64,000 nt of DNA, from the IMG/VR virus record IMGVR_UViG_3300030419_007010, positions 64,001 through 128,000 of that record. One strand, written 5' to 3'. This document shows positions 32,303 through 58,075 of this stretch, in pieces; positions within the stretch are counted from its first letter, which is position 1; the number at the start of each line of letters is the position of its first letter. This stretch comes from a virus. The notes beneath the pieces are model-generated. The model saw only the letters and a list, made by a program, of their open reading frames with translations, searched no databases and was not told where the DNA came from. The translations under genes were made by a program, and so were the position numbers.

Positions 32303-32490
32303 TACTGCTCATCAAATTCTGTTTCATCATCATTTTCAAACTTGACGATCGGGGGATTCATAACAAATAATTCTCCCGAGGCCTCTTGAAAGTCAAGATC
32401 TTTAATCATTGGAACAATATCACTTTGCTCCATCAAACACTTTTGCAAGCACATCATTAAAGAACCGACTGCTTCATCTGATAATTTCAT
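32302..32490 (-). CDS. Hypothetical protein (62 aa; start revised to MKLSDEAVG)
   Basis: GGAGGT SD before the ATG at 32490, which overlaps the upstream TGA (ATGA). Confidence 0.65.
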   Translation of the reverse strand: MKLSDEAVGSLMMCLQKCLMEQSDIVPMIKDLDFQEASGELFVMNPPIVKFENDDETEFDEQ

Positions 32491-33326
32491 TTCAAACCTC
32501 CAAAACATTTTCTAATGCCATCTTCAATTGGCATTTTTACTTTCCAACCTAATCCTGCTAGAGAACTAGTATTGGCTTTTGTATACATCACATCACCAGG
32601 ACGTGGTGCAACATAATCAAACTCGACTTCCGGACAATATTCCAGCACGATCTCTTTCATTTCGTTCAAGGAAATATTATCCCCTGTTCCTGCATCAAAT
32701 ACTCTGCCATCAAATCGATCGTTGTGTTCCATAGCAAAGATATTAGCAGATACTGCGTCATGAACATAAAGCATATCCCTACGCTGATCACCATTGCCAG
32801 TAATAAACGGATTTTTTCCTGTTCTAATATAGTGCATCCAATTACAAACTGCTGTCGCATAAGGGCCAGATGCTTCTTGATCTTCTGAATAAACATTAAA
32901 ATATCGCAGTGTTACTGTATCAATACCATATAGTTGCGAATATAGTTTTGTTTCTAATTCTGAAGTTAATTTTTGTAACGCATACGGGCTTGTTGGACCC
33001 TCTCCGTTACCAACTACAGAGGATGAGCCAGAGTAAATAACTCTTTTTGCTCCTACTTTCTTGGCGAAGTCCAACACTATGCTAGTTGATATAATGTTAT
33101 TAATCGCCGTGTGGACTGGTTGCTCGACGCTGTAAGCGACTCGCGGGATGCACGCTAGGTGGAATATGTATTCTGGTGCAAAGTCGACTAGGTGGTCTAA
33201 ACCATCTAATATATCTTCCTCTTCTAGAAGGTCAATACCTCTCACTTCGTGGCCCAACTCTTCTAATTTCTTATATAAGTGGGTTCCTATATAACCTTTG
33301 TGACCTGTTACTAAACATCTACTCAT
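32487..33326 (-). CDS. NAD-dependent epimerase/dehydratase (extended SDR)
   Basis: LVTGHKGYIG, SGSSSV, YALQK (YxxxK), LRYFNVY, GNGDQRRD. Confidence 0.92.
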   Translation of the reverse strand: MSRCLVTGHKGYIGTHLYKKLEELGHEVRGIDLLEEEDILDGLDHLVDFAPEYIFHLACIPRVAYSVEQPVHTAINNIISTSIVLDFAKKVGAKRVIYSGSSSVVGNGEGPTSPYALQKLTSELETKLYSQLYGIDTVTLRYFNVYSEDQEASGPYATAVCNWMHYIRTGKNPFITGNGDQRRDMLYVHDAVSANIFAMEHNDRFDGRVFDAGTGDNISLNEMKEIVLEYCPEVEFDYVAPRPGDVMYTKANTSSLAGLGWKVKMPIEDGIRKCFGGLK

Positions 33327-34164
33327 CTGATACAGCCCTTCCTTTTAACTGCTCCCAGTCCTTCTCTGGTCTTACTTCTAAATTGGTTTTCCATGCAGCT
33401 TCCGCTATGTTGCTTGATAATCCCAAGCTTCTAGCAAAGTCTGCAAAAGCATTGATATCTTTTGGAAAACAACTACCGCCAAATCCCCATCTGCCATCAG
33501 GGCCGGGGACATTAACATGCGAGTCACCAACTCGGCCGTCTGAAACAAATCCTTCTAGCGCTGTGTCCCAATCTGCTCCGACTTCATCAACTAGCCTTCT
33601 CATTTCATTACAGAAAGCTACTTTGACAGCGAAAAAGACGTTATTAAAATACTTAATAAATTCAGCAGTTTCGTAATCAGTTTCGATTATCTTTGGTCTT
33701 TGAAATCTCATATTATATAATTCAGCAACCCTCTTTGTAGCTTCGGGATAACCTCCTAAAACTATTCTAGCTTGATTCATAAAATCAAACTTTGCAGTTC
33801 TTTCTGTTAAGAATTCCGGATTAAATACAATATTTAAATTAGGAAAATTATTTCTCATTTCCCTTGTTGTCCCGGGAATTACAGTTGACTTAAGCACGAC
33901 GACTGTATCTTCTTTTGGCTTTAAGCTTGATACTTCTTCTAGTACTGAATAGACTATGTTAAGATTAATCGAACCGTCCTTATTCATTGGTGTTGGTACA
34001 GAAACAAAAATAACATCTGATTCTTTTACTACCTCTTCCATAGAGTTCATAGACTTTAATGGGTCTTTGTCATGTACTAAAACCGGGACTACGGGACTTA
34101 GGCCAAACGATATGGACGAGCCAACAAATCCATGCCCAATCACGCCTACTTTTTCTACTTTCAT
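33319..34164 (-). CDS. UDP-glucose/GDP-mannose 6-dehydrogenase family, short form (281 aa)
   Basis: GVIGHGFVG, FVSVPTP, KSTVIPGTT, FNPEFL, catalytic GFGGSCFPKD; lacks the C-terminal domain. Confidence 0.9.
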   Translation of the reverse strand: MKVEKVGVIGHGFVGSSISFGLSPVVPVLVHDKDPLKSMNSMEEVVKESDVIFVSVPTPMNKDGSINLNIVYSVLEEVSSLKPKEDTVVVLKSTVIPGTTREMRNNFPNLNIVFNPEFLTERTAKFDFMNQARIVLGGYPEATKRVAELYNMRFQRPKIIETDYETAEFIKYFNNVFFAVKVAFCNEMRRLVDEVGADWDTALEGFVSDGRVGDSHVNVPGPDGRWGFGGSCFPKDINAFADFARSLGLSSNIAEAAWKTNLEVRPEKDWEQLKGRAVSDE

Positions 34165-34177
34165 TTATTATTTCCTT

Positions 34178-35830
34178 TTATTTTTTATAAACAAGAATAT
34201 CATATTCAATAAAATACAGATAATCTATGTTCGTGTTAAGAAAACATTCTATTGCGTTTGTTGGGGTTTCTACAATAGGTTCTCTGTCATTAAAGCTAGT
34301 ATTTAAAACTATTGGTACACCAGTTTTCATATGAAACTTTTTAATCAAATCATAATACAGCTTATTTTGTTCGGCAGTTACTGTTTGAATTCTCGCTGTT
34401 TGATCTTTGTGTTCAACTGCGGGTGCCTTACCTAACTTGTCCGACTTAAACTTAAATACAAAGCCCATATATGGAGACGGAAAATAGTTTTCGAACCACT
34501 CGTTTCCACACTCCTCAAGAACAGAAGGGGCAAATGGACGATACCATTGTCTGTGTTTTACTTTTTCATTAATTAATGATTTCATCTGATGGCTAATAGG
34601 ATTAGCTAAGATACTTCTGTTTCCTAGCGCGCGTCGGCCAGATTCAGATCTGCCTTGAAAAACACTAATTATATTGTCCTCTATAAGTAACTCAACACAT
34701 TCATCTAAAGAACACTTTCTTACAGCTAGCTTATCAATATTATTTTCGATTGATTTTTCAACATCTTCTCTGCTGTAGACTTCTCCAAGATATGGAGAAA
34801 CAAAATCATCTAGGTTTCTTTCATTGTTTAAAACGGAAAACCAGTGATATTGACATGCACCAATAGATAATCCTCCGTCGTAAGGGACGGGAGGTACAAA
34901 TACATTCTTTATTATTCCATCAAATTTACTCTTAATTTTTCCAGTAAAAGAAGAATTTAAGCTAACGCCGCCGGCTAGGCAAAGATTATCAAATTCAATA
35001 TTATTGTTTTTTGCTAACCCAACCATTTGATTAATAATATCAAAAAGTATATCTTCTGTCACTTTTTGAAGTGCAGCTGCAAGATTCATTTTTTCTTTTT
35101 CATCTTTCTCAGCTATCTTTCTAAATTTGTCTAAATATGGATGAACTACATCTTCTTCTGGAGGAACATACACACCACGTTTATATCCCGGAGGACAGAA
35201 TTTTACATATGGAAAATCTTCAGTAGCCATCTTCATAAAATCTTTGTAATATTTTTGCGGATCTCCAAATGCGGCCATGGCCATAATTGAACCAGCCTGG
35301 TGACCTCTCGGATACCCTGATGATAGCTTAAATATGAACCTTGTGCATCTTCCCCATAAATTACCCAGGCTCATGATATCATTATTTATTTCGAAAAGAT
35401 TTGTTATCTTATTACCTTTTCCATAATATCCAGAAGTAGATATTGAATTGCCTTCTTCGTTTATTCCAGCACTATCAATAGTTAATATTAAGCTATTTTC
35501 ATAGGGAGAGGAATAAAAAGCATGTGCAGCATGACACAAATGATGTCCATAAAAATTAATTTTATCTTTTGATAATCTATCGTGAGTATTATATGTTTCG
35601 CCGCCGTTAGCTTCTAGGTTTGTATTTGGCAAAGGAGAGACCCAATGATCTATATCTTCCATATCCAAGTTATTTTTAGACAAATATTTTTCTTCTAAAT
35701 ATAGTAGAGAATCTCCACCAGATTCTTTTAAGCGAGTATATCTTTCTATTTCAATGTGCTCTACGACTTTTCCGTCATCTAAAACACAATAGCCGCCGTC
35801 GTGCCAATTATATAATCCAACAACTTTCAT
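34178..35830 (-). CDS. O-carbamoyltransferase, NodU/CmcH family (550 aa)
   Basis: HDGG, ERYTRLK, HHLCHAAHAF, LAGGVSLN, GRSESGRRALGNRSILA, RPFAPSV, LNTSFN..EPIVETP. Confidence 0.93.
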   Translation of the reverse strand: MKVVGLYNWHDGGYCVLDDGKVVEHIEIERYTRLKESGGDSLLYLEEKYLSKNNLDMEDIDHWVSPLPNTNLEANGGETYNTHDRLSKDKINFYGHHLCHAAHAFYSSPYENSLILTIDSAGINEEGNSISTSGYYGKGNKITNLFEINNDIMSLGNLWGRCTRFIFKLSSGYPRGHQAGSIMAMAAFGDPQKYYKDFMKMATEDFPYVKFCPPGYKRGVYVPPEEDVVHPYLDKFRKIAEKDEKEKMNLAAALQKVTEDILFDIINQMVGLAKNNNIEFDNLCLAGGVSLNSSFTGKIKSKFDGIIKNVFVPPVPYDGGLSIGACQYHWFSVLNNERNLDDFVSPYLGEVYSREDVEKSIENNIDKLAVRKCSLDECVELLIEDNIISVFQGRSESGRRALGNRSILANPISHQMKSLINEKVKHRQWYRPFAPSVLEECGNEWFENYFPSPYMGFVFKFKSDKLGKAPAVEHKDQTARIQTVTAEQNKLYYDLIKKFHMKTGVPIVLNTSFNDREPIVETPTNAIECFLNTNIDYLYFIEYDILVYKK

Positions 35831-35833
35831 ATA

Positions 35834-36562
35834 TCATTCCTCAAATTCTTTTTTAATTAAAACTTGTCCATAATCAATTTCGTCATCTGGTACCCTTCTA
35901 TCATCAAAAAAGATTCGCCTGTCCATAATAATAAGCTCTTTTTCATGATCGTCAATCTCGTCAATAGCTTTTGCACACTCAATATTATCTACTTTTTTAG
36001 TAGGAAGATGATAATCATCAAAAAGAAGAAATTTTGTAAATTTATTTTTTGTTAAAATCCAATCAGATTTAGTAGCTTGGTATGTATGGTCTCCATCAAT
36101 ATAAACAAAATCAAATTCTTCATTTAATGATAATAGAATATTTTGTGAAAAGCCTGGGATGAGTTGTATATTATTTTCAGTGAACCAGTGGTTCGGAAAA
36201 GTGTTTCTTAGCCTGTCTACATGATTTTTTGTTTCTTGATTATGGAAAAGTGGGTCTATAGAAACAATCTTGCCTCCGCCGTTTTCTGCTAGTGCTTTGG
36301 CTGCGCATATAGTTCCGTATCCTCTACCAAAACCAATTTCTAGAAATGATTTAAGGTTGTACTTCTTGATTAGATGATATATTAAAATGCCTCTTTCATA
36401 ATTTGGTCTAAAGAAACATCCTACTTTTTTATAGAGTTCGCTGTCAGGTGAACGCGTTTTCTTTGCGGTATGTTCTCCAATTTGATCAAAATCGCCTAGA
36501 TTAATATCGTCTAGTGGATACCCAAGCTCTTCTAACTTTTCTATTATATGAATTTGTTCCAT
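35834..36562 (-). CDS. Class I SAM-dependent methyltransferase (Methyltransf_24-like)
   Basis: FLEIGFGRGYG, SIDP, FDFVYIDGDHTY, LFDDY. Confidence 0.85.
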   Translation of the reverse strand: MEQIHIIEKLEELGYPLDDINLGDFDQIGEHTAKKTRSPDSELYKKVGCFFRPNYERGILIYHLIKKYNLKSFLEIGFGRGYGTICAAKALAENGGGKIVSIDPLFHNQETKNHVDRLRNTFPNHWFTENNIQLIPGFSQNILLSLNEEFDFVYIDGDHTYQATKSDWILTKNKFTKFLLFDDYHLPTKKVDNIECAKAIDEIDDHEKELIIMDRRIFFDDRRVPDDEIDYGQVLIKKEFEE

Positions 36563-37183
36563 TTATATCTCCCAATCTTTGTATTCTGGTTCTTTAGTTT
36601 TATTGTTATTATGCATTCTGTAACGATAAAATGGATATCTAAGATGATGAATCTTATAAAAATCACCTAATCTTTTTCGTAAGTTCTCTTCTTCTTTGTG
36701 TCGCATATTAGGATCATATGCACCCATTTCAACAAGTAAATCTTTTCTGTACATTATACCACAAGAAATATTGTCTTTTTCAGCATATTTTCTCTCTAAA
36801 ACATTTTCATAATTGTCTATCAAAATATAGTCACAAGATACACAGAACGCGTCGTGATTTGCTTCTAAATATTCCTTCATAAAATAGCACATATCATCAG
36901 AAACATAATCGTCAGCATCAACACGAATAACAAATTGCCCTTTAGCTGCTTTTATTCCTTTGTTGGCGGAAGCTGCAACTCCTAAATTCTTCTTGTTTTT
37001 TATTAATTTAATGTCATCCAAGAAGGGAACCATAACTTCCCAAGATTTATCTGTGCTCTTATCATCTACAACAATTACTTCAACATTAACATTCTTCTGA
37101 TTTAAACAGCTTCTAATGCATCTAGCAATATATCTTGAATAATTATAGTTAGTTATAATAATTGAAACATCAGGATTAGACAT
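36563..37183 (-). CDS. Glycosyltransferase family 2 (start revised to MSNPDVSII)
   Basis: SIIITNYN, VIVVDDKSTD, NLGVAASANKG, RVDADD. Confidence 0.9.
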   Translation of the reverse strand: MSNPDVSIIITNYNYSRYIARCIRSCLNQKNVNVEVIVVDDKSTDKSWEVMVPFLDDIKLIKNKKNLGVAASANKGIKAAKGQFVIRVDADDYVSDDMCYFMKEYLEANHDAFCVSCDYILIDNYENVLERKYAEKDNISCGIMYRKDLLVEMGAYDPNMRHKEEENLRKRLGDFYKIHHLRYPFYRYRMHNNNKTKEPEYKDWEI

Positions 37184-38810
37184 AATTTTCCTCATACCAG
37201 AGACACAAAATCAAAAATGCAAACTTCAAATATCCATTTTTAATGTCTTTGACGTTAAATCCTTCTTTAAAAATATTAGACTTTATAATCTCACAATTAT
37301 TGATTACTTCATCAAACTTGTCATTCCATCCATCAAAACCCAACATAAAGCCAATTTTGTTTCTATGCACAAACTCTTTATCGTAATATTGTTCTAAAAG
37401 TTTTTTGATTGGATACTTACGTATTTTACCAAACATATTCTCATATGTTAAGCGATTTGAATATTCCACTACGCGGTGATCCAAAAAAGGAACTCTAACT
37501 TCTAAAGAGCTAGCCATGCTCATTCTATCTACTTTCTGGAGTATGTCTCCTTCCAGAAAAAATCTAATATCCAGAAGTCTCATTATTTCATTTTTATCTT
37601 TTGTTTCATAAGGCAATTTAGTTAACATATAATCATATGTGTCATTCTTATATTCATTCTGCAAAAAATCTAAATTTGTGTTGCGAAAAAACCTTTCTGA
37701 TATTGGTATTTCCGTATTGTTGTACTTGTTGTAACCACAAAACACTTCATCAGAACCATCTCCGCCTAAAGCGACAGTAACATTGCTAGATATTTTATTG
37801 GATATCAGATAAGTTGGTATAATTGAAGAATCTGCGAAAGGCTGACCAAAGTGTCGAACCAGTTTTCTTAAAAAGTTGAGCTTAATTTCATCGTAATTTA
37901 CAAAGATATCAGTGTGATTTGTCCGACATTTGTTTGCAACCAACAGAGCATACTCTTTTTCATTTAGTTCTTTATCGTTAATAACAGCGGTAAAGGTTTT
38001 GCAATCTTGTTCTATCGATGATAAATGCTGCACAACCAGCGAAGAGTCGACTCCTCCGGAAAGATACGCACCATAAGGTACATCACTTCGCGTTCGTAGG
38101 GAAACCGCGTCACGAAGAAGATTTTCGAGGTACCCTAAATCGCTTTCTTTTCTTTCTTGAGGAGTTAAAGACCAATATTTCTTAATTGAACTAGCTCTGG
38201 TTTTAACATCAAATTCTAAATAATGGCCCTGCTCTAAGCTTCTGATTTCATTCCATATAGTATTTGGAGAAGCAATATAATATGTGTTAAAAAACATAGA
38301 TATAGCGACAGGATCTATTGATAAATTATCTATTCCTACTAAATCTTTTACGGAGTTAATCTCTGAGCAGAACGTTAATCCATTTTGCAGTGAGTAGAAC
38401 AACGGCTTAATGCCCATCCTATCTCTCACCAAAAAAAGCTTTCCTCTTGTTTTGTCATAAAGAGAAAAAGCAAACATTCCATTTAATTCTTTTAATGTTT
38501 TTTCTAAACCAAACTTCTCGTAGTATTTTAATAACACTTCTGTGTCAGAAGAGGTAGAAAATTCGCAATCTAAATCTTCTTTTAATTCTCGATAGTTATA
38601 AATTTCTCCATTAAAAACAAGAACTTTTTGACCATCATCAGAGATCATTGGTTGTTGTCCAGAAGATAAATCAATTATAGAAAGTCTAGTATGACCTAAA
38701 GAAACGTCTTGATCACGATAGAGACCTCTAGAATCTGGTCCGCGGTGACCAATATTATTAAGGAATGTCCTGTCAATAGGATATTTTGTAGAACCAATTA
38801 TTCCGCACAT
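37176..38810 (-). CDS. Asparagine synthetase B-like glutamine amidotransferase (probable sugar amidation)
   Basis: N-terminal MCGI, HRGPD, LGHTRLSIID, FNGEIYNY, LSGGVDSS, GDGSDEVFCGY, KVDRMSMASSLEVRVPFLD. Confidence 0.93.
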   Translation of the reverse strand: MCGIIGSTKYPIDRTFLNNIGHRGPDSRGLYRDQDVSLGHTRLSIIDLSSGQQPMISDDGQKVLVFNGEIYNYRELKEDLDCEFSTSSDTEVLLKYYEKFGLEKTLKELNGMFAFSLYDKTRGKLFLVRDRMGIKPLFYSLQNGLTFCSEINSVKDLVGIDNLSIDPVAISMFFNTYYIASPNTIWNEIRSLEQGHYLEFDVKTRASSIKKYWSLTPQERKESDLGYLENLLRDAVSLRTRSDVPYGAYLSGGVDSSLVVQHLSSIEQDCKTFTAVINDKELNEKEYALLVANKCRTNHTDIFVNYDEIKLNFLRKLVRHFGQPFADSSIIPTYLISNKISSNVTVALGGDGSDEVFCGYNKYNNTEIPISERFFRNTNLDFLQNEYKNDTYDYMLTKLPYETKDKNEIMRLLDIRFFLEGDILQKVDRMSMASSLEVRVPFLDHRVVEYSNRLTYENMFGKIRKYPIKKLLEQYYDKEFVHRNKIGFMLGFDGWNDKFDEVINNCEIIKSNIFKEGFNVKDIKNGYLKFAFLILCLWYEENYV

Positions 38811-39643
38811 CTTATAATTTTATACTCAAACTCTGGATAATGGAAATCTCTCACAGTCGGCGTTCCAGATAAGCTAGCTTCTATCACTGGTTTGCGCGCT
38901 AGATTATAGTTTCTTCTCTCTTCAGAATTAATACCGACATTGCTAGAGGCGGTTAAGGACTTGGAATGGAATCTTCTATTATATAAGACTTCCGGCATAT
39001 TATAAATTCTATTCAATCCTAGGATTCTTATGAAAATATCTGTGTCTGCTGCAATCCTAGTCCGGCCGTCCCAGCCTCCTAGGGCTACTAAAATATCTCT
39101 TCTAAATAATACTGTACCGTTCATGCAAAACTTAAACTTAAGATATTCTTCGTAATTTCCGTCTGGCTCTAGAGAAGTTAAAAGATCATTTAAGGTAAAA
39201 GTTTCTATCACTTTTGGATATACATTTTTTCTGCTTCTGCTGCTGTTTTCATTCTCGGATATTGTATGTGGTTCATGATCTTCCCAAAACTCATTTACTG
39301 CTGTGCCTACACATGCAGCACTAGATAATATCATAAAATTTAATTGTTTTTGTAGTCTTTCCGGCTCACTAAAATCATCCGAATCGTGAAGCCCAACATA
39401 TTGTGAGTTGCAATAGTTTTTTAAGACGAAGTTTTTGCCAGCATATGTACCAACATTCTTTTTCGAACAAATAATTGTTATTCTATCATCTTGAAAAGAT
39501 TTGATTTTTTCTACTGTATCGTCGGTACTACAATCATCAAAAATAAATAAATTAAAATTCCTGTACGTCTGATTAAGAATAGAATCTACACATTGTTCTA
39601 TAGTATCAGAAGAGTTATAGGTACATAAAATAATATCAATCAC
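38798..39643 (-). CDS. Glycosyltransferase family 2
   Basis: IILCTYN, SILNQTY, FDDCSTD, HDSDD..PERLQKQ, GGWD. Confidence 0.9.
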   Translation of the reverse strand: MIDIILCTYNSSDTIEQCVDSILNQTYRNFNLFIFDDCSTDDTVEKIKSFQDDRITIICSKKNVGTYAGKNFVLKNYCNSQYVGLHDSDDFSEPERLQKQLNFMILSSAACVGTAVNEFWEDHEPHTISENENSSRSRKNVYPKVIETFTLNDLLTSLEPDGNYEEYLKFKFCMNGTVLFRRDILVALGGWDGRTRIAADTDIFIRILGLNRIYNMPEVLYNRRFHSKSLTASSNVGINSEERRNYNLARKPVIEASLSGTPTVRDFHYPEFEYKIIRCAE

Positions 39644-40331
39644 TCAAATACTCCTCGATTACTCTATCAATTTTACTAGCTACCTCTTGTTCTGCTTCTG
39701 GTGTTCTATCTTTAATTTGATAAAGCTTTCCTTTGTTCTTTAGTACAAAACTACTAACTGTTTGTTTTTTAATATCTGCTAGGCTATCTTTTAATACTTC
39801 GAATCCAGCAATACAAGATTTTAAAAATAGATCTTCTATATCATCACCAGCGGCAATATCTGCTTTTTTTTGAGCGATTATTTCTCCTGCATCGATTGAC
39901 TTATCAATATAGTGCAATGTTGCACCAACACCATCTAGGTTTTCGTCATGGACTGCCCAAAAAGCGCTATCAACTCCTCGAAATAATTGAACAATTCCAG
40001 TATGTATATTTATACATCCATATTTTGGTATAGAAAATACTTCTTCTTTTAAAAGACTGCAGCCGAAAGTAAAGATAACTTCAGGATCGTGTTTCTTAAT
40101 TAATTCAACAGTTTCTTTTGTGTTTATTTGTTCCTTATCAAGAAAAGTATATGGACTTATAGGGGTCCAATCGACTTGCTCCTTAAATAATTCTTTCTCT
40201 TTTTCGTATAAAGAAGCAGAAGAAATAGGCTTATCTTCAAAAAAAATTCTGGATGCAAATGTTCTATTATATAACATTTCAGCAAAATATCTATGTCTAG
40301 GATGAGTTGAGGTTATAATTACAGTTCTCAA
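39636..40331 (-). CDS. Formyltransferase (N10-formyl-THF dependent; probable sugar N-formyltransferase)
   Basis: CINIHTG..FRG, GATLHYIDKSIDAGEII (NxH...D catalytic set). Confidence 0.85.
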   Translation of the reverse strand: MRTVIITSTHPRHRYFAEMLYNRTFASRIFFEDKPISSASLYEKEKELFKEQVDWTPISPYTFLDKEQINTKETVELIKKHDPEVIFTFGCSLLKEEVFSIPKYGCINIHTGIVQLFRGVDSAFWAVHDENLDGVGATLHYIDKSIDAGEIIAQKKADIAAGDDIEDLFLKSCIAGFEVLKDSLADIKKQTVSSFVLKNKGKLYQIKDRTPEAEQEVASKIDRVIEEYLSD

Positions 40332-41711: not shown

Positions 41712-41712
41712 T

Positions 41713-42405: not shown

Positions 42406-42406
42406 T

Positions 42407-43060: not shown

Positions 43061-43064
43061 GAAT

Positions 43065-45530: not shown

Positions 45531-45543
45531 TAATTTTCCTCAA

Positions 45544-48247: not shown

Positions 48248-48292
48248 TACCTCTTCTCAAACTCAACTATTAAATGCAATTGCTTAATTATA

Positions 48293-48781: not shown

Positions 48782-48812
48782 ATATTATATACATAGAATC
48801 CGGAATCGCCCA

Positions 48813-50407: not shown

Positions 50408-51350
50408 CTTTGTACCATTTTATACATTTTAGTATTCCATCAGATAACGATACATATTTGTGTTCTGGTATGTATGTCTTCAGCAAAGATAAATCTGGCT
50501 GTCGTCTTAGTGTGTCAAAATCACGAGAAGGAAGGTGAACTGGCGTAAACTCTTTTTCTTGGTTACTCAAATCGTGTATAGTTTTTGCTAAATCAATCAT
50601 ACTAATGAGGTTGTCATTACCTAGATTTACCACCTCGTTGGTGGCTAGATCTGCCAGCTTAACCGTTAAATCAACATGATCATCTATATAACAGAAACAC
50701 CGAGTTTGTAAGCCATCTCCTATTATAGTAAAGTCTTCAGAATTATTAACTTTTCTTATAAATTCAGGTATTACTTGACCATACTCGGTATTATCCATCC
50801 TAGTACCGTAAGTATTAAAAATTCTTAATATTAAGAAATCTAGATTATTCTGCTTCGCGAACATCTTAACATAAAAATCTCCAATTACTTTAGAAGACGA
50901 ATAGCTGTCTCGATCTGTAAAGATATTTAATAGTATATGTTCTCTTTCTGAAGTAGGTAAAGGAGGGTTATTACCATAAGCTTCTGAAGTCGACGCATAA
51001 ACAATTTTCTTAATACTTGAGCCTTTTATGGCCTGCAGCATATTTTGTGTTATTAAGATGTTGTTGTTAAAAACATCGTGCGGGATATCATAAAAATACT
51101 TCGTGCCATTAATAGCCGCATAATGATACAGGATATCCGGATTATGTCGAGCAACTATTTGTTTTATCTGCTCGACATTCTCTGTTAAGTCTAATTCATA
51201 AAAAGAAAAATTATCATGATTTGGTAAATTCTCTTTCTTTCCGCGAAAAAAGTTATCAATTCCAATAACTTTATAGCCAATAGATAACAACTTATCAGTT
51301 AAGTGGCTTCCTATAAAACCAGCAGCACCTGTTACTAAAGCAGTTTTCAT
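50391..51350 (-). CDS. Extended SDR, UDP-glucuronate decarboxylase (UXS)-like
   Basis: LVTGAAGFIGSHL, YASTSEAYG, YSSSK, RIFNTYGTRM, GDGLQTRCFCYIDD; next to a UDP-glucose dehydrogenase. Confidence 0.8.
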   Translation of the reverse strand: MKTALVTGAAGFIGSHLTDKLLSIGYKVIGIDNFFRGKKENLPNHDNFSFYELDLTENVEQIKQIVARHNPDILYHYAAINGTKYFYDIPHDVFNNNILITQNMLQAIKGSSIKKIVYASTSEAYGNNPPLPTSEREHILLNIFTDRDSYSSSKVIGDFYVKMFAKQNNLDFLILRIFNTYGTRMDNTEYGQVIPEFIRKVNNSEDFTIIGDGLQTRCFCYIDDHVDLTVKLADLATNEVVNLGNDNLISMIDLAKTIHDLSNQEKEFTPVHLPSRDFDTLRRQPDLSLLKTYIPEHKYVSLSDGILKCIKWYKDENLY

Positions 51351-52141
51351 TATTCATCTCTCATACCATCAAAAACAGTAATCTTATATTTTGAATTTTC
51401 TTTTAATAAACAATCAAAAAACTCAACGTTAGTATTCTTTGCTAAAAATGCCATGGCTCTAGTATCTTTAGGAAGACACATACCACCGAAACCACGTAGA
51501 TCAGAATTACAATCTAAATATTTTCCGTTTATTTGATTTCTAAGAGTCATAGTATTTTTAATTTTTGTATAATCAGCGTCTTGTTTTTCACACAACTCAT
51601 AGAAACTATTAGCAAAAGTAACCAAAGTTGCGTTATAAACATTATTATAATATTTACAAAATTCTGCTTCTGTTACCGAAAGCTTTACAAAATTTTCAGG
51701 CAAAGAACCGTGAGCTTTTTTAATCAATTCATAATTTGAATCTGTATTTGCTCCTATTACACAAAGATCATGGTTATTAACAAAATCCTCATACGCACAT
51801 CGTTCTCTTAAAAATTCTGGAACAAAACAAATATTCTTATTTTTAAATCTTTCTTGGAGCTTTTTAGTAGTTCCAGGAGCTACTGTAGACTTAATACAAA
51901 TTAAACCTGAGTAGTTAAGCTCTAGTAGATGAGAAATTACCTCTTCTACAATGCTAGTGTCGCACTCTCCTGTCTCTTTTGACGGTGTAGGTACACATAA
52001 AAAACATATTTCAGTATGTAATACATCCTCGATCTTTGTGTCCATCCTAATATCATGTGCTATTACTTCATGTTTCAGATCTAACAAGCCCTTATATACA
52101 GCTTCACCTACTACTCCTACTCCGATGACTCCTATCTTCAT
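51350..52141 (-). CDS. UDP-glucose/GDP-mannose 6-dehydrogenase family, short form (263 aa)
   Basis: GVIGVGVVG, CVPTP, KSTVAPGTT, FVPEFLRE, GFGGMCLPKD. Confidence 0.9.
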   Translation of the reverse strand: MKIGVIGVGVVGEAVYKGLLDLKHEVIAHDIRMDTKIEDVLHTEICFLCVPTPSKETGECDTSIVEEVISHLLELNYSGLICIKSTVAPGTTKKLQERFKNKNICFVPEFLRERCAYEDFVNNHDLCVIGANTDSNYELIKKAHGSLPENFVKLSVTEAEFCKYYNNVYNATLVTFANSFYELCEKQDADYTKIKNTMTLRNQINGKYLDCNSDLRGFGGMCLPKDTRAMAFLAKNTNVEFFDCLLKENSKYKITVFDGMRDE

Positions 52142-53043
52142 TATAACCTCTTAAAAAAATCTAAATATTTTTCAATATGTGTATCTAATTTAAACTGTTG
52201 GATATTATTAAAATTCTCTTCAACGTCTTCTTCAGTGGGAAAATAAATTTCTTTTTCTACATCAATAATACAATTGTCATTTAACGTTTGGCTAGCCATC
52301 CCCATATCAGTTGAAATAATTGGAACCTTCATTGCTGGCGCTTCTAGAAGAGATTGTGGGCCGCCTTCGTAACGAGAAGAAACCAAATATAAATCGCACG
52401 CTGCGTACATCTTTTGTACATCTTCCAGAGGAACCATTTCTTTATATGTATATTTTATTCCAGCTTGTTCTAACCGAGATATAACGTATTGTCTGCGCCA
52501 GCCGCCTAATAAAATATGCAAATTATCTTTTTCTAATTTCTCTACATAATCACAAAATAAATCAGGCCCCTTTTCAAGTTTAGGTGTCTTAAGATCAAAA
52601 CCCTCTGTATCTCTCTGGAAAGAGCCGATTATATAATCGTCTTTCGGCAAGCCAAGATATTGACGACAGCCTTGTTTATTAAGCTCATACCAGCATTTTT
52701 CATTATACCAATATCCTATTACTGTAATAGGTTTATTAGTGTGTTCCTTAATGAAATTTTTTGTTTGTTCACAGGGAACATGATAATGATCAACAAACTG
52801 ATCTCTTATTAAAAAATCTTGTTTGTTAAATTTATTTGGAGTAACATGATGAACAGTAAGAACTACTTTTTTTGACATTAGTAAATTAGTATTAATCTTT
52901 TGCCACGAATATCCATCTATTAACCATATAATATCGCTTTCTAATATATTAGTTGTAGAATATTCTTGTTTTTTAAGATACCATTCCTGTGATATTCTAT
53001 CTAAAATCCAGTTTTCTCCTGGGGCTGTTGCAAATACTTTCAT
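52141..53043 (-). CDS. GT-B glycosyltransferase (GT4-like)
   Basis: EKGPD, YAACDLYLVSSRYEGGPQSLLEAPAMKVPIISTDMG. Confidence 0.88.
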   Translation of the reverse strand: MKVFATAPGENWILDRISQEWYLKKQEYSTTNILESDIIWLIDGYSWQKINTNLLMSKKVVLTVHHVTPNKFNKQDFLIRDQFVDHYHVPCEQTKNFIKEHTNKPITVIGYWYNEKCWYELNKQGCRQYLGLPKDDYIIGSFQRDTEGFDLKTPKLEKGPDLFCDYVEKLEKDNLHILLGGWRRQYVISRLEQAGIKYTYKEMVPLEDVQKMYAACDLYLVSSRYEGGPQSLLEAPAMKVPIISTDMGMASQTLNDNCIIDVEKEIYFPTEEDVEENFNNIQQFKLDTHIEKYLDFFKRL

Positions 53044-53996
53044 ATAATTTCTTCTACAATCCTCACAAAATCATCAGCATATCTTTCTTGTGTGTAATAT
53101 TGAGCATATTGTAAGCCTTTTTCTACTAGCTTAAGTCTCTCTTCTTCATTATCAATATAAAATGATAACTTTGAAATTATTTCATCGTCAGACATATCCA
53201 TATTAATATCAATAACAAAATCTTTAAACAATAGCTGCTCTTCTCCAGGAATATCTGCTGCTATAGCGCTAGCACACATAGGTATCTCAATATATTTACC
53301 AAATCGAGATTTTGGTTGCCCACTACATGTAACACATATTTTGGCAGAATTTAATGTTTGGGCATATTCAAAACTATTTCTATCTGACGCTGCGTCATGT
53401 AAAAGGCCACCAGGGTGTTGTAAAATCCCGCACCTATACTTTTGTGACATCTTGGGCAAAATGCTAGTCGCCAATCTTATTCTCAACGGATAATGGTCAC
53501 CTAAAATCGATTTAGTGTGGACGGCTCCGGCTAATAAGATATCATATTTCTTTGGAAGCTGGTAATCTTTATAAATCATCTTTTCTGCACAATGTGGAAT
53601 ATTGACAAATTTTATATCTGTACCTTTATATAATTCTTCATACTGTTCCATATCATTAAGATGATGACAAATAACTAATTGTGCGCCGGACTCATCAATT
53701 TCTTTTTTTGTCCACGGTACATCAAACATCTCGTTATAGCGAACACATTTAAGCGGCTTTGCTTTCGAAAACTCTTTTAATTCTAAAGGCTTAAAAGCTA
53801 CAACTATATCCGGTTGTTCATCACCATATATATTATCTATATTCTCCTGCACAGTCTTCGAATCATCATAGTTGGACCAACCCAGGCCGGACCAAGTTAG
53901 TTCTGCCAGTTTACCAATTGCTCGCATACCATGAAATCTAACACGAGACATCTTTGTGTCGTGAGATTTTTTATTACAAAGATAAAGAACTTTCAC
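53040..53996 (-). CDS. GT-B glycosyltransferase (Glyco_trans_1_2/CgeB-like)
   Basis: KKYDILLAG, HYPLR, YAQTLNSAKICV, KYIEIPMC, EERLKLVEKG. Confidence 0.75.
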   Translation of the reverse strand: MKVLYLCNKKSHDTKMSRVRFHGMRAIGKLAELTWSGLGWSNYDDSKTVQENIDNIYGDEQPDIVVAFKPLELKEFSKAKPLKCVRYNEMFDVPWTKKEIDESGAQLVICHHLNDMEQYEELYKGTDIKFVNIPHCAEKMIYKDYQLPKKYDILLAGAVHTKSILGDHYPLRIRLATSILPKMSQKYRCGILQHPGGLLHDAASDRNSFEYAQTLNSAKICVTCSGQPKSRFGKYIEIPMCASAIAADIPGEEQLLFKDFVIDINMDMSDDEIISKLSFYIDNEEERLKLVEKGLQYAQYYTQERYADDFVRIVEEII

Positions 53997-54715
53997 AGAA
54001 ACTTTCTCTTAAGCTGCTCATATAAACATTCTGGATCATATGAAGCATTCTTATCTTGTTCTGCTCGTCTCCACATCTCGTTCCAAAGATGAATACCATA
54101 TACCCCATCGTCAAAATTAAAATTGACTTCAGGATTTAAAAAGATATTCCATAGCGCGCCAGGAATTGGACAAAAAGCAGTGAAGTGTTTTACGAAAGGT
54201 TGTAGCTGGAACGTCTCAACAGATGATTTTACAAGCCTAGGCCCAATCTCTCCCCATACTAGCTTTTCTTTTTCTTTCGACATACAAATATCAAAAGCTC
54301 TTTTTGTTACTGGATTTCCTTTAGGTGCTTTTATAACGCCGGCGTTAATATGCTGGTTCTCTTCTCCAAATGGCATAACTTCTTCAGAGGAAAAAACATA
54401 CGCATCCGGAAAATCAAAGTGCTTCAAACACACCTGATCTGTATCAACCCAATAACCACCCTTCTCATAAAGAAGCTTATATCTAAAATAGTTAGAAAAT
54501 CCAGAATAGCTTTTGTGCTCGCGATAAACAAATATCATATCTCTAGAAAGGATGTCATTACCATCTTTTACTTGTACGCCTTGTGGAACGTTTTTCACAT
54601 CTCCATAAGTATACAAGTGAACTTCGTGCCCGTTCTTCACAAAAGAAGACAAACACAGTTGTTCCATTACAGATAGCTCTTTGCCTATCCAAAGAGATTG
54701 TATAATATTTGACAT
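53993..54715 (-). CDS. GT32-like DxD glycosyltransferase (alpha-1,4-GT/capsular type)
   Basis: IQSLWIG, FSNYFRYKLLYEKGGYWVDTD, WGEIGPRL, IHLWNEMWR. Confidence 0.85.
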   Translation of the reverse strand: MSNIIQSLWIGKELSVMEQLCLSSFVKNGHEVHLYTYGDVKNVPQGVQVKDGNDILSRDMIFVYREHKSYSGFSNYFRYKLLYEKGGYWVDTDQVCLKHFDFPDAYVFSSEEVMPFGEENQHINAGVIKAPKGNPVTKRAFDICMSKEKEKLVWGEIGPRLVKSSVETFQLQPFVKHFTAFCPIPGALWNIFLNPEVNFNFDDGVYGIHLWNEMWRRAEQDKNASYDPECLYEQLKRKFL

Positions 54716-56805
54716 TACCTTACTACTTCACTCCAGAAGCGAGCTGGTACTGCTTTAAGATATTCCTCTGTTACAGACAAATCATCGGTAGCAAACCACT
54801 CTTCATCTTTGTGCTGCACATTATCATTTAAATGAAGCTCACAACCCAGCAGTTTTGCCTCTATAACCATCCTAGGGCAAGTATCTGCTCCAGGGGGCAG
54901 AGAACATAAGCCCTTGGCTCCTGCTAGCATTTGAAGGGTCTCTGCGGGGTTTTTACCATGAATTTTAGTATAATCTAGATTGTTTTCCTTACACCACTCT
55001 TCGGCTTCTGGTGCTCCTTTCACCCAGTTTGGCGATCCGGGAATTAACCAAATATCGTTTTTCTTATCCTTATACTGTTCTCGAAGTTGTTTAATGAAAA
55101 TGAAAAACTCTGGTTCGAAAATAGAAGTCAATCTAATGCAATTATCTTTATTCAAATCTGACATGTTTTCTAGTGTAATTTCCATTTGCTTATCAGACAT
55201 GAAGAAAACCTTATTAGCGTTCTTTAAGAACGTATTTACAGATTTACCATGTTCGGAATCTTTACAATCGCAAGGTGTTCCCTCTAGAGTTTCGTGCAAT
55301 TCCATATTTCTGTATTTACAAAACTTATAATCAAACTCTACTACAAAGTAGTTAATATTTTGCTTTTCAAAAACACTTACTAGCTCTGGATTCATTTGGG
55401 TATTATTACCAAAAATCCAAGTCGCGTCTTTATGGGCTGTTACTAAAGACTCATTTAAATCTTTGCAATTTATCCCGGTATTTAATGCTGGGCATCCTCT
55501 CATTAAAGATCCCAAACTCAATTCTGCTCCTCCCAAAACTTGATTATGGAAGAAGTCGCTAGCAAATATATATTCTAGTTTCTCTGTTACATCTCCTCCG
55601 TAAATTGAGGAGGCCATTTTCTCGTATTGGTTCTCTTCACTAAATGTTTCCAAAATCCAATTTTGCAGCTTCTTTGCCTGTTTTTTAAATCTTCCATGAT
55701 CCTTAAAAACGTCGCGCATCGCAGCTTTACAAGATTTTTCGTCAGGGTAACACCACATAGAGTCTGCTTGAATTACTCCTTCCCAGACAGCTTGCTTTTG
55801 CACCGGCTGTAGTGTGTAATTTATTTTAGAAAAAAGTGGTTTAATTTTTTCTTTTCCTTTTTTACCTTTTACAGGTGCAAACAAGAAATCGCATTGACCG
55901 CTCCACTCCGGAGCAATAACCGGCATACCACTATAAGCTGCTTCAAAAAGAGGAAGACCATAGCCTTCTCCATGGCTAGTAGAAACTATAGCTTTAAGTT
56001 TCGGATTCTTATATAAAGCATGCATTTCTTCGTCAGTCATATTTCCATGAAGAAGATATACCTTACACTTTCTATCAGGATAACTGCTTAAAATATTTTC
56101 TAATTCTTGTTTGCAACTATATCTATCCATTATGTTATTTTTAGATTTATTTGCTTTTATAACAAGACCTACTTCCTCGTCTTTAAATTCTTCAACAAAC
56201 CACTTAATGGTACTATTAAGATTTTTACGTGGGCCCCATTGAGCTACTGTAAGAAAATTAAACTTATAATCTAGTTTTATATCTAATTTTGGCTTTTTCT
56301 CATAAGTTTTAACAGGATACCCAACTGCTTCAATCGGTACGGTACATCTAAAGTCTTTTACTTCTTCTCCTGTTTCATTATTTTTTGCATGATAGCTAGT
56401 CTTTTCAAATACATCTTTTGAGTGGTTAGAAGTAATAACAATTCTATCCATCAGCATGGACTTCTCAACCCATTGTGGAGATATTTTTGTAGTTTCAATA
56501 CCAGCGGTCACACCAACGTTAACGGGAGCTAATTTTTCCCATTCATTTGGTATCGTCACTTGAACGGACATATCATATTGGCCGCCCTGTTGTTGGTGGA
56601 TAATTGTCTTTTTAAGAATTTGATCCATCCAGTCTCTTTCTTCATCTGCTTCGGGAAGCCACCCTGTGTGGCCCCAATTAACAGCAATCAGATAAATATC
56701 AAACTTATCTTCATAAGCTCGGAGGGAGCGCAAAACAAATCTTGTGTGTTCGCCGTAGCCGCTTCTAGTTAGTGCGGGCCCGCGGACTAATACCTTTTTC
56801 CTCAT
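54715..56805 (-). CDS. Two-module glycosyltransferase (GT4-like + second GT-B-like), 696 aa
   Basis: N-module: SGYGEH, PRKN, SHGEGYGLPLFEAAYSGMPVI. C-module: GGAELS, VFFMS, NWVKG, DTCPRMVIEAKLLGC. Confidence 0.85.
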   Translation of the reverse strand: MRKKVLVRGPALTRSGYGEHTRFVLRSLRAYEDKFDIYLIAVNWGHTGWLPEADEERDWMDQILKKTIIHQQQGGQYDMSVQVTIPNEWEKLAPVNVGVTAGIETTKISPQWVEKSMLMDRIVITSNHSKDVFEKTSYHAKNNETGEEVKDFRCTVPIEAVGYPVKTYEKKPKLDIKLDYKFNFLTVAQWGPRKNLNSTIKWFVEEFKDEEVGLVIKANKSKNNIMDRYSCKQELENILSSYPDRKCKVYLLHGNMTDEEMHALYKNPKLKAIVSTSHGEGYGLPLFEAAYSGMPVIAPEWSGQCDFLFAPVKGKKGKEKIKPLFSKINYTLQPVQKQAVWEGVIQADSMWCYPDEKSCKAAMRDVFKDHGRFKKQAKKLQNWILETFSEENQYEKMASSIYGGDVTEKLEYIFASDFFHNQVLGGAELSLGSLMRGCPALNTGINCKDLNESLVTAHKDATWIFGNNTQMNPELVSVFEKQNINYFVVEFDYKFCKYRNMELHETLEGTPCDCKDSEHGKSVNTFLKNANKVFFMSDKQMEITLENMSDLNKDNCIRLTSIFEPEFFIFIKQLREQYKDKKNDIWLIPGSPNWVKGAPEAEEWCKENNLDYTKIHGKNPAETLQMLAGAKGLCSLPPGADTCPRMVIEAKLLGCELHLNDNVQHKDEEWFATDDLSVTEEYLKAVPARFWSEVVR

Positions 56806-58064
56806 GATACCTCTATAAGTTCGTATTTTTTATAACCTTTTCTATTTTCCCATGAACCGTACTCTTCATGAATACGGAGCATTAAAGATTCCCAGTTATT
56901 TTTATAATTTTCAAAATTGTAATTGTTTACAACATGTTGTCTGCCAGCAGCGCCAGTTTCTGCGCGCTCTTCAGGAGTCATATTATAAATCTTAAGCATG
57001 GCATCAACTAAATCTTTTCCACTAATTCTATCTTCATAAATCCATGGAATAGGCTGTGAGCCGATAATAGCTTTTGAAGACGGCTCAATCCCAACACCAA
57101 ACCAATTCTCTCCGTCAGTTACCTGCTCTTGCAACCCACCGGTCATATTAACAATAATAGGAGTTTCAGTCGACAAAGCTTCCAAAGTAGCAAGACCAAA
57201 ACCTTCTGCATCAGAAATATTTATAACACAATCGGACGAGTTATAGATAAGAGAAAGAACTTCAGGAGGAACTTTATTCTGCGAGAACATAACTTCTCCA
57301 TTTGTTAAGCCTAGATGTTCAATAATTGCTTGAAGGTCTTGACCGTGCTCATCTTTAACATCTGTATGCATAACAAGACACGCTTTATCATGACCAACTT
57401 CATCCAGGAAGTCTTTAAACCAGAATATTAAACTTCCAGACTGCTTTCTTCGTGCATTTCTATTGTTCCAAAAAAATACGAATCTGTCATCATTAATTTC
57501 AGGCATATTCTCATTCTTAAATTTTTCAATTTCCTCTTCGGATTTCTTTGAAAAAACATCAGTATCTACTGAATGAGGAAGATATAAAGAATCAACGTCC
57601 GGGGCCACGTTCTTTACAATGTCTGCTGTAACTTTTGATATCGCCGCGATTACGTCTGTAGACTCATAGAATGGTCTGTTAAATGTAGGATATGGTTTGT
57701 TATCCCAAACATGATAATAAACCATGGGCATATGGGGTCGAATCTCATCTTCTATATCCCATAACCATCCATAAAATCTAGGATCTGTCATAAACCACAA
57801 AATATCTGGCTTTTCATTACGCATAATGGAGCGGATCATATCTTGTGTTCCATATCCATCAACTGGATAAATAATCCAATCATCCCCCCACTCTTCGGTT
57901 TTTGTTGGGTTATAGTCGTGGTGTTTAACAGCACCGCCGAGACAAGTAAACTTAAACTTGCCTGTCGGTAACAGTGATTCAATCATATATTTTGTTTGTG
58001 TTCCAACACCTGATGGTGATAGAGGGTGGTCACTTAAGACAAGAACCTTGATTTTTTTATCCAT
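56802..58064 (-). CDS. GT4-like glycosyltransferase (start revised to MDKKIKVL)
   Basis: SDHPLSPSGVG, NRNARRK, SDAEGFGLATLEALSTETPII; GAGGA SD before the ATG at 58064. Confidence 0.88.
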   Translation of the reverse strand: MDKKIKVLVLSDHPLSPSGVGTQTKYMIESLLPTGKFKFTCLGGAVKHHDYNPTKTEEWGDDWIIYPVDGYGTQDMIRSIMRNEKPDILWFMTDPRFYGWLWDIEDEIRPHMPMVYYHVWDNKPYPTFNRPFYESTDVIAAISKVTADIVKNVAPDVDSLYLPHSVDTDVFSKKSEEEIEKFKNENMPEINDDRFVFFWNNRNARRKQSGSLIFWFKDFLDEVGHDKACLVMHTDVKDEHGQDLQAIIEHLGLTNGEVMFSQNKVPPEVLSLIYNSSDCVINISDAEGFGLATLEALSTETPIIVNMTGGLQEQVTDGENWFGVGIEPSSKAIIGSQPIPWIYEDRISGKDLVDAMLKIYNMTPEERAETGAAGRQHVVNNYNFENYKNNWESLMLRIHEEYGSWENRKGYKKYELIEVS

Positions 58065-58075
58065 TTTTTCCTCAT

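Follow-up and report, generated by a model that had tools for sequence, protein, structure and literature searches.

A conserved pair of GT4 glycosyltransferases heads variable glycan cassettes in an abundant marine myovirus lineage: a candidate system for virion glycosylation

We analysed a glycan island in a 64,000-nucleotide stretch of viral DNA (the window), which covers bases 64001-128000 of the 161,727-bp linear IMG/VR contig IMGVR_UViG_3300030419_007010 (CheckV completeness 89%). The island consists of 28 contiguous and mostly overlapping open reading frames (ORFs) on the minus strand, at window 32487-58064/58085, and it is a fixed hotspot in a large and very abundant lineage of uncultured marine myoviruses. 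Two glycosyltransferase (GT) genes of the GT4 type open it in almost every relative, and what follows them varies from genome to genome. The explanation that we favour, with moderate confidence, is an autonomous cytoplasmic glycosylation system in which a conserved GT4 core and a variable outer cassette act together, probably on virion proteins.

Results

Scans of IMG/VR retrieved 593 relatives by the sigma-like protein that lies downstream of the island and 554 by the PD-(D/E)XK nuclease that lies upstream of it. In 69 of 70 related loci the next gene after the nuclease was a homologue of the 427-amino acid (aa) GT4 protein of the island, and in 68 of the 70 it was followed by a homologue of the N domain of the 696-aa GT4 protein. 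Between this second GT4 and the small ORFs on the sigma side there was a variable cargo of 0 to about 24 kb, and the distance from nuclease to sigma was about 9 to 26.5 kb in the cargo-bearing relatives (contig coordinates). A minimal island of 2.6-2.7 kb, with the two GT4 genes and one small ORF, was present in eight distinct related contigs and continued into the genes for a zinc-ribbon protein, a small hydrophobic-acidic protein and the sigma factor. Clustering of 1105 island ORFs of at least 100 aa at 30% identity gave 377 clusters, 241 of them singletons, and the two GT4 families were the only near-universal ones. According to a Pfam census of 148 cargo cluster representatives, the cargo includes methyltransferases, GT2 enzymes, short-chain dehydrogenases/reductases (SDRs), cytidylyltransferases, radical-SAM/B12 proteins, GT1 enzymes, PhyH dioxygenases, DegT and NeuB proteins and thiamine pyrophosphate (TPP) enzymes, all of these families belonging to soluble glycan chemistry. 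A preliminary description of this DNA, made from its letters, had proposed that island content be compared among related phages, and it was this comparison that brought out the conserved two-GT4 core and the variable cargo. Relatives with identical flanks had identical islands, and flanks of 70-80% identity went together with Jaccard indices of cassette sharing from 0.05 to 0.82 (few close pairs), which is suggestive of cassette exchange among relatives.

The structural genes of the phage are T4-like (sheath, portal, gp23-type capsid, baseplate wedge), and its capsid protein is closest to those of Microcystis phage Mel-JY01, Flavobacterium phage vB_FspM_immuto (hereafter immuto) and Rhodothermus phage RM378. 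The same three phages also have the GT4 core or part of it. In immuto the PD-(D/E)XK nuclease gene is followed by a small ORF, two GT genes and a series of glycan genes (GT2, aminotransferases, methyltransferase, mannosyltransferase, acetyltransferase, epimerase and another GT), in Mel-JY01 the nuclease, one intervening gene and the GT pair are followed by GT-A, methyltransferase and GT genes, and RM378 carries a homologue of the first GT4. The present phage encodes a transfer-messenger RNA (tmRNA) at about 144665-145016 of its own genome, with one tRNA-Thr nearby, and the tag ANDNVANYALAA resembles proteobacterial tags; from this tag and the sigma-70-type promoters of its relatives, the host is probably of proteobacterial type. 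Phages of at least three cultured host phyla thus share the GT4 core with the present phage, whose host is probably proteobacterial, and the retention of this core across four host phyla favours an acceptor that is intrinsic to the virus.

Core GT4 number 1 (56802..58085, minus strand) is a 427-aa retaining-type GT-B enzyme with a Pfam match to Glycos_transf_1. Its likely start is the ATG at 58064, which agrees with the end of the island as first described; in the TTG-started form, residues 1-7 show no conservation and are modelled with low confidence (predicted local distance difference test, pLDDT). The AlphaFold2 (AF2) model shows a GT-B fold with a pLDDT of 91, and E294 and E302 (E-x7-E) were invariant in 53 sequences, so that the fold and the C-terminal E-x7-E motif of CAZy family GT4 are both present. 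By sequence as well as by fold, the top PDB match was the chlorovirus NY-2A protein B736L, at about 18% identity, and the characterised fold neighbours were MshA, BshA, sucrose-phosphate synthase and PimB'. In a collection of 5.8 billion proteins the family comprised at least 7450 clusters at 90% identity; among the listed sources are Tara Oceans, JGI and ENA, and the contigs reach about 198 kb at most, which is phage-sized.

The second gene (54715..56805, minus strand) encodes the 696-aa protein, a fusion of two GTs with a Pfam GT1 match on residues 184-388. Core GT4 number 2 corresponds to residues 1-405 (DNA about 55591-56805, minus strand) and a compact third GT-B domain to residues 411-694 (DNA 54718-55575, minus strand). 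Both domains have the E-x7-E motif, and the alignment also shows GG-x-E. The N domain is conserved among relatives (E about 1e-160), and the third domain, encoded by an ORF of its own where it is not fused, was found in 37 of 62 loci and was otherwise missing. Both core GT4s also match the Pfam family GT4-conflict. Nearly all GTs of the island are acidic, with an isoelectric point (pI) of 4.9 for core GT4 number 1 and of 5.1 for its N domain. By a rule of thumb, and a weak one, the N domain is usually basic in GT-B enzymes whose substrates are membrane lipids, and the acidity weighs weakly for a protein rather than a lipid acceptor.

In a Kyte-Doolittle scan, 26 of the 28 island proteins had no segment resembling a transmembrane (TM) helix, and the other two, which are not membrane proteins, each had one borderline hydrophobic window (1.61 and 1.64), in line with the earlier statement that the island has no obvious membrane protein. 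That statement also covered Wzx, Wzy and the priming transferase. Searches with the hidden Markov models (HMMs) for Wzx (PF01943), Wzy_C (Wzy/WaaL, PF04932) and Bac_transf (PF02397) bore it out across the whole contig, with no match to any of them while the positive controls did match. We then extended the searches to 25 related genomes, of which 9 are CheckV-complete and 2 have terminal repeats: Wzx (PF01943), the WbaP-type (PF02397) and WecA-type (PF00953) primers and the ABC-2 permease (PF01061) were absent from all of them, and the positive control Glycos_transf_1 matched in 25 of 25. Furthermore, none of the 1231 unique island ORFs from about 150 related loci had three or more TM segments, and the export-less character first described for this one island therefore extends to the lineage. 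The island has the clustered nucleotide-sugar genes and the several GTs of a surface-glycan locus, and it is without the primer and the flippase, polymerase or permease of such a locus. What gene content, TM scans and HMM searches describe is a set of soluble, virus-encoded GTs that would not depend on the membrane glycosylation machinery of the host. Because all the proteins are soluble and no gene of the lineage would prime, flip, polymerise or export a glycan, we infer assembly directly on a cytoplasmic acceptor. The sole multi-TM protein of the 161.7-kb contig stands at the tape-measure position, after sheath and tube; it has 941 aa (own genome 17850-20675), five strongly hydrophobic segments at residues 633-771 and no Pfam or PHROG match.

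Pfam placed 24 of the 28 island ORFs in glycan-related families. The tally gave three SDR epimerases or dehydratases, two short UDP-glucose/GDP-mannose dehydrogenase-like proteins, one each of a DegT aminotransferase, a NeuB-like synthase, a CTP_transf_3 cytidylyltransferase, a GNAT enzyme, a formyltransferase, a PIG-L deacetylase, an AsnB-type amidotransferase, a NodU/CmcH carbamoyltransferase and a DUF2334 protein, three clear methyltransferases and a weak one, and nine GT ORFs (two GT2, four GT1/GT4-type, one DXD/GT32-like and the 427-aa and 696-aa GT4 proteins). With the 696-aa protein counted as two GT-B domains, and with two candidates that are blank in Pfam, the number of GT domains is 10-12, close to the ten or so estimated previously. 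The genes had been counted as 27 in that estimate; the ORF listing gives 28, and their contiguity and common orientation were as described. No paralogues of island genes were found elsewhere in the contig.

The cassette genes behind the core all lie on the minus strand (window coordinates throughout). Its GTs are a DXD-type (GT32-like) enzyme at 53993..54715 (Pfam Gly_transf_sug, Gb3_synth), a GT-B enzyme at 53040..53996 (Glyco_trans_1_2), a GT4 enzyme at 52141..53043 (Glycos_transf_1, E 4e-14), a GT1-like enzyme at 49496..50407 with a weak match to Glyco_trans_1_4 at the cut-off, and two GT2 enzymes at 38798..39643 and 36563..37195. The 268-aa protein encoded at 44724..45530 had no Pfam, NCBIfam or PDB sequence match, and its ESM Atlas neighbours, partly Glycos_transf_2, offer a GT2-like lead. 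The 330-aa protein encoded at 43750..44742 is a compact GT-B fold in the AF2 model (pLDDT 96) and had no match in Pfam or in PDB sequence and profile searches; its Atlas neighbours carry Glyphos_transf, its relatives sporadically carry PF04464, PF02350 or PF02684, and its Foldseek neighbours included NeuC, PglA, TarL/TagF and UDP-GlcNAc 2-epimerases (TM-score about 0.65). Judging from the model, this protein may be either a hydrolase of the NeuC/LegG/PseG type or a TagF-like or ulosonic-acid transferase.

All five enzyme classes of a nonulosonic-acid route are clustered in the island: an NDP-hexose 4,6-dehydratase at 46629..47642 (Pfam GDP_Man_Dehyd, Epimerase), a pyridoxal phosphate (PLP)-dependent sugar aminotransferase of the DegT/PseC/LegC type at 45544..46668 (DegT, E 2e-87), a PseH-like GNAT N-acetyltransferase at 48293..48781, a NeuB/PseI-like (non)ulosonic acid synthase at 41004..41735 (NeuB, E 1e-29) and a PseF/KdsB-like CMP-(non)ulosonic acid cytidylyltransferase at 43065..43757 (CTP_transf_3). 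The NCBIfam scores against the equivalog cut-offs were 240/423 bits for PseC, 103/206 for PseF, 103/400 for NeuB and 38/93 for PseH, and the closest model for the dehydratase was dTDP-glucose 4,6-dehydratase (RmlB), at 266 bits and also below its cut-off. As all these matches fall below the equivalog cut-offs, the sugars are named at class level only. The NeuB-like protein is short (243 aa) and matched the NeuB/PseI models only at about positions 1-247 of 329, without the C-terminal part. The two dehydrogenase-like proteins are likewise short and without the C-terminal domain, one of 263 aa at 51350..52141 (Pfam UDPG_MGDP_dh_N and the central domain only) and one of 281 aa at 33319..34164. Since the same short forms recur in relatives (a dehydrogenase-like cluster of 38 members with a median of 284 aa, and 19 NeuB-like members with a median of 276 aa), they are conserved minimal versions rather than pseudogenes. 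The two remaining SDR enzymes are an NAD-dependent sugar epimerase/dehydratase at 50391..51350 (Epimerase, E 3e-55) and an epimerase at 32487..33326, the last gene of the island, which in relatives often adjoins the small ORFs on the sigma side.

The tailoring genes comprise methyltransferases at 42407..43060 and 35834..36562 (both Methyltransf_24), an FkbM-type methyltransferase at 41713..42405 and a probable one at 47639..48247, with a weak match to Methyltransf_12/23 (E about 2e-3) and homologues in sibling islands. They further include a PIG-L family sugar N-deacetylase at 40328..41017, a sugar N-formyltransferase resembling the N domain of ArnA at 39636..40331, a NodU/CmcH-type O-carbamoyltransferase at 34178..35830 (Carbam_trans_C, E 5e-63; Carbam_trans_N) and a DUF2334 protein at 48813..49511, which we take to be polysaccharide-deacetylase-like. 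The AsnB-type glutamine amidotransferase at 37176..38810 (Pfam Asn_synthase and GATase_7; NCBIfam) is a candidate former of a uronamide or acetamidino group, on a presumed substrate.

With regard to expression, a TTGACA-N17-TATAAT promoter was present just after the PhoH stop codon in about 25 of 66 distinct related loci, at the head of a unit made up of a small ORF, a metallopeptidase-like gene, the nuclease, the two GT4 genes and the cargo. The copy at this place in the contig itself (window 60060-60114) is degenerate, and sigma-70 and terminator scans of the island gave nothing above shuffled expectation. De novo motif search found ACTATTTA(T/G) 12-43 nt upstream of sheath, head-module and baseplate-wedge genes on the minus strand (for example at genome 25846, 28556, 31619 and 82059, the last being window 18059), and CTATTTA occurs 20 times on the coding strand versus 8 on the other. 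As a candidate late promoter this motif is unlike that of T4 (TATAAATA), and it was not found near any island gene start. From the host-type early promoter in relatives and the lack of the late motif at the island, it follows that the island enzymes are probably made before the virion proteins. The GTs of chloroviruses and the DNA GTs of T4 are also made before the late proteins. The T4 late promoter was itself tried and rejected for this phage, being neither enriched nor placed upstream of genes (8 per strand, all intragenic). A perfect 12/12 sigma-70 consensus (TTGACA-17-TATAAT) lies at window 43879-43907 (minus strand) within the gene for the 330-aa GT-B protein, about 120 nt upstream of the cytidylyltransferase start, and may be an internal promoter or a chance occurrence in AT-rich DNA.

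Nearly all genes of the window are on the minus strand. The conserved upstream anchor of the island is the PD-(D/E)XK (Cas4-like) nuclease (58076..58852, minus strand; Pfam PDDEXK_1, PHROG exonuclease), and PhoH belongs to the same flank. A conserved HExxH metallopeptidase-like protein is encoded between the two in nearly all relatives; here it has 224 aa (59139..59813, minus strand), a weak Pfam ATLF/M90 match and the motif HEISH, and it shares the operon of the nuclease and the GT4s. The conserved downstream block (30978..32302, minus strand; PHROG 234, 385 and 1076) consists of the zinc-ribbon protein (32018-32302), an N-terminally hydrophobic acidic protein (31645-32028) and the gp55-like late sigma (30978-31679), all on the minus strand and in an order that is kept in relatives; a hub lysin and baseplate wedge genes also lie on this side. 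The island runs in the same direction as the late-sigma gene and joins it without a gap. Its placement beside late sigma and baseplate genes had been noted before and stands, with a sigma match that is weak (E 1e-5). The protein encoded at 31645-32028 has a hydrophobic N-terminus of about 45 residues, then a very acidic tail, and a pI of 4.05; it is the sole membrane-like protein near the island and may be a membrane-anchored regulator. At window 3982-14697 there is a giant baseplate/fibre protein of 3571 aa with a MAM domain match at residues 1496-1647 (E 3e-8), and a second giant protein, of 2877 aa, had no Pfam match at all.

Discussion

We propose that the two core GT4s, together with the third GT-B domain where it is present, would lay the first one to three sugars, drawn from ordinary host nucleotide sugars, on a conserved acceptor. 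The cassette, which comprises 26 genes in this phage, would then make unusual activated sugars, transfer them and decorate them. In one branch, the 4,6-dehydratase would feed the PLP aminotransferase, whose product may be N-acylated by the GNAT enzyme or the formyltransferase, with the PIG-L deacetylase perhaps permitting an exchange of acyl groups; a possible NeuC/PseG-like step, a NeuB-type condensation and CMP activation would complete a nonulosonic-acid-like sugar. In a second branch, two pairs of a dehydrogenase-like and an SDR enzyme would yield uronic acids, possible substrates of the AsnB-type amidotransferase. The glycan would be lengthened by seven to nine further GT domains and tailored by the carbamoyltransferase, the three or four methyltransferases and the DUF2334 protein, beside formylation or acetylation and amidation. 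The acceptor would most likely be at least one virion structural protein (capsid, sheath or giant baseplate/fibre protein), resulting in strain-specific glycan coats. We infer the identities of the sugars, the order of action and, above all, the acceptor. A more specific version, in which abundant ocean myoviruses carry strain-specific, O-antigen-like virion glycans that are made wholly in the cytoplasm, the invariant GT4 pair priming a conserved virion protein and recombining cassettes of up to about 24 kb, some of them for nonulosonic acids, writing a variable outer 'glycocode', is put forward tentatively, and we would rate it a little below an even chance.

Three observations serve as leads towards a protein acceptor and not as proof: the match of core GT4 number 1 to B736L, the acidity of the GTs and the presence of Maf-like domains in sibling islands. 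With respect to the last, matches to the Maf/MptE-like family PF01973 were found inside NeuB-bearing sibling islands in 7 of 13 contigs, mostly sub-threshold and one above the cut-off. In the sibling islands behind loci L010, L106, L116, L119 and L151 there are ORFs of 684-691 aa with a GT4-like region and a sub-threshold Maf/MptE-like one, and these could be protein-directed nonulosonic-acid transferases. Several points weigh against virion proteins as the acceptor. No acceptor motif was identified; no match to PF01973 was found in the contig of this phage; the acceptor of B736L is itself unknown; and MshA, BshA, sucrose-phosphate synthase and PimB', to which the core GT4 is close in fold, have small molecules or lipids as substrates. 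Early expression is compatible with virion glycosylation yet not specific to it, and does not discriminate between acceptors, and the contig is 89% complete.

Among the other possible acceptors, the glycans of the host surface have the most in their favour. Phage enzymes may extend undecaprenyl pyrophosphate-linked intermediates of the host O-antigen, capsule or protein O-glycan, which the primer, exporter and ligase of the host would finish, and the altered surface would block superinfection or keep progeny off debris. Solubility is also the rule in bacterial O-antigen loci, for most of the GTs and for every sugar-nucleotide enzyme, so that host primers and exporters could serve the phage enzymes and the export-less state is not exclusive to either case; the absence of export genes in the preliminary description was confirmed, and the step from there to a cytoplasmic, virion-borne acceptor is not compelling by itself. 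The S. aureus prophage protein TarP is a precedent for a soluble phage GT that acts on a polymer exported by the host. In addition, the set of uronic acid amidation, nonulosonic acid, carbamoyl and methyl groups resembles bacterial surface glycans, the tag ANDNVANYALAA suggests a Gram-negative proteobacterial host with lipopolysaccharide (LPS), the operon head in many relatives has a host-type early promoter, and the papers on pelagimyophages (PMC7029224) and cyanomyophages (PMC12801897) take comparable genes as host surface modification and prefer this explanation. However, the first two GTs are conserved across phages of Flavobacterium, Microcystis, Rhodothermus and a probable proteobacterium, whose envelopes are very different, and none of the 1231 island ORFs, and no gene of the 25 related genomes, encodes the cognate flippase, polymerase or permease that novel O-units usually need. 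The phages look lytic and T4-like, which leaves a short time to resurface a cell, and the acidic GTs also speak weakly against it. With its first GTs invariant across envelopes and no cognate exporter in more than 1200 cargo ORFs, host remodelling is the less economical explanation, and we consider it doubtful while giving it appreciable weight. A different cytoplasmic acceptor, namely a host protein, a non-structural phage protein or a small molecule, as in counter-defence or a soluble glycoconjugate, would suit the fold neighbours MshA and BshA, which glycosylate small molecules, the GT4-conflict match and the sharing of an operon, under an early promoter in relatives, with the metallopeptidase-like gene and the nuclease. 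We know of no precedent for it, and a hypervariable multi-GT cassette of 25 kb implies a large, exposed glycan under diversifying selection, so that such an acceptor seems improbable.

Glycosylation of a modified DNA base as a means to evade restriction, as in the T-even phages, RB69 and TET-dependent systems, would agree with the position of the GT pair, which has a nuclease beside it and, in immuto and Mel-JY01, replication genes nearby, with the GT4-conflict matches of both core GT4s and with the minimal two-GT islands, which would suit a mono- or disaccharide on a base. LPS-type enzymes have given rise to known DNA GTs of phages (bioRxiv 10.1101/2023.12.21.572611), but all known routes of phage DNA glycosylation need a hydroxylated base, for which either a homologue of thymidylate synthase or a C5-methylase together with TET is required. 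Thymidylate synthase (PF00303) and C5-methylase (PF00145) were both absent from the contig and its 25 relatives, 9 of them complete; a search with PF12851 (Tet_JBP) also gave no match, and carries no weight because the control genomes gave none either. The DNA of the relative immuto contained only dA, dC, dT and formyl-preQ1 (fdPreQ1) in a published analysis by liquid chromatography with UV and tandem mass spectrometric detection (LC-UV-MS/MS), and no glycosylated nucleoside (bioRxiv 10.1101/2023.04.13.536721). Moreover, 10-12 GT domains with carbamoyl, methyl and nonulosonic-acid chemistry go far beyond any known DNA glycan. DNA, which had been named earlier as an acceptor that might account for the GTs, is thus unlikely, and we give it a very small share of the probability. 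The same description had also raised the possibility of a chimeric host fragment, i.e. a piece of a host O-antigen locus mis-joined into a phage contig. The island does show a slight dip in GC content (0.31-0.37 versus 0.35-0.41 in the flanks), but strand and overlapping gene organisation are continuous, and the junctions of nuclease with GT4 and of SDR with small ORFs and sigma recur in dozens of independent contigs, the gene order being kept in about 70 contigs and in two cultured phages. Synteny refutes an assembly artefact, to which we assign next to no probability.

Several known systems resemble the one proposed here. Chlorovirus capsid glycosylation (PBCV-1 A064R, NY-2A B736L/PBCV-1 A546L) and the fibrils of the Megavirinae also involve soluble GTs and multi-domain fusions, with virus-encoded sugar-nucleotide enzymes and methyltransferases as in the island, and the glycans of chloroviruses combine a conserved core with clade-specific decorations. 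Chloroviruses glycosylate their capsid with soluble enzymes of their own (PMC9614988). They are eukaryotic giant viruses, however, whereas the glycoprotein of the island is a predicted one and its cassette is far more variable between close relatives. In mycobacteriophages, the subject of Freeman et al. 2023 (Cell Host Microbe 31:1216), cytoplasmic GTs of the phage reportedly decorate capsid and tail-tube subunits, likewise without export machinery. Mycobacteriophages differ in having few GT genes, no known pathway for unusual sugars and actinobacterial hosts. The flagellin glycosylation islands of Campylobacter, Helicobacter and Aeromonas (Pse/Leg with Maf) provide cytoplasmic O-glycosylation of a secreted structural protein with heavily tailored CMP-nonulosonic acids, in acetamidino, methyl and formyl variants, and share with the phage island an AsnB-type amidotransferase and methyltransferases beside NeuB and the CMP-transferase, and Maf-like domains in the sibling islands. 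In contrast to them, no Maf-like protein was found in this phage, its many GTs imply an oligo- or polysaccharide instead of single sugars and its pathway enzymes fall below the equivalog cut-offs.

Bacterial O-antigen and capsule loci are likewise co-oriented and hypervariable between conserved flanks, with sugar-nucleotide genes, many GTs and tailoring genes, but their membrane components (primer, flippase/polymerase or ABC transporter, ligase) are absent from the island and throughout the lineage. Phage DNA glycosylation (T4 alpha- and beta-GT, arabinosyl-5-hydroxycytosine (arabinosyl-5hoC) in RB69 and DLP3, TET-dependent glycans on 5-hydroxymethylcytosine (5hmC)) similarly relies on soluble and probably early enzymes encoded near DNA-metabolism genes, and differs in its enzyme for a hydroxylated base, none of which was found here, and in the DNA of immuto, which is not glycosylated. 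The marine cyanomyophages (P-SSM2, S-SCSM1, S-SCSM2R) and the pelagimyophages are T4-like as well and have plastic regions rich in GTs, epimerases and dehydrogenases, whose putative role in published accounts is to modify the host O-chain; the lineage described here is distinct by its capsid, and in it the position of the island is fixed, the two-GT4 core does not vary and the present island adds a complete nonulosonic-acid-like branch. The 'LPS' islands of marine T4-like phages have been noted for two decades, since P-SSM2, and to our knowledge the GT-rich islands of these phages have had no experimental assignment. GT islands in marine phages and virion glycosylation by phages are each already known, separately. 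What is new is a fixed two-GT4 core with hypervariable cargo in a distinct and very abundant lineage, and the lineage-wide negative results on the export and DNA routes.

The lineage-wide absence of export, priming and base-hydroxylation genes narrows the possible acceptors, and the presence of the same core in the cultured phages immuto and Mel-JY01 makes the question of the acceptor testable. If host glycans are the target, the island would mean a large-scale reprogramming of bacterial surfaces by lytic phages. If, on the other hand, the virions are glycosylated, this would bear on adsorption, on how readily the phages stick to marine particles, on decay and grazing, and on the origin of phage surface diversity. 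A virion coat of this kind would be the phage counterpart of self-glycosylation in chloroviruses and mimiviruses, and would explain the 'LPS genes' of marine phages.

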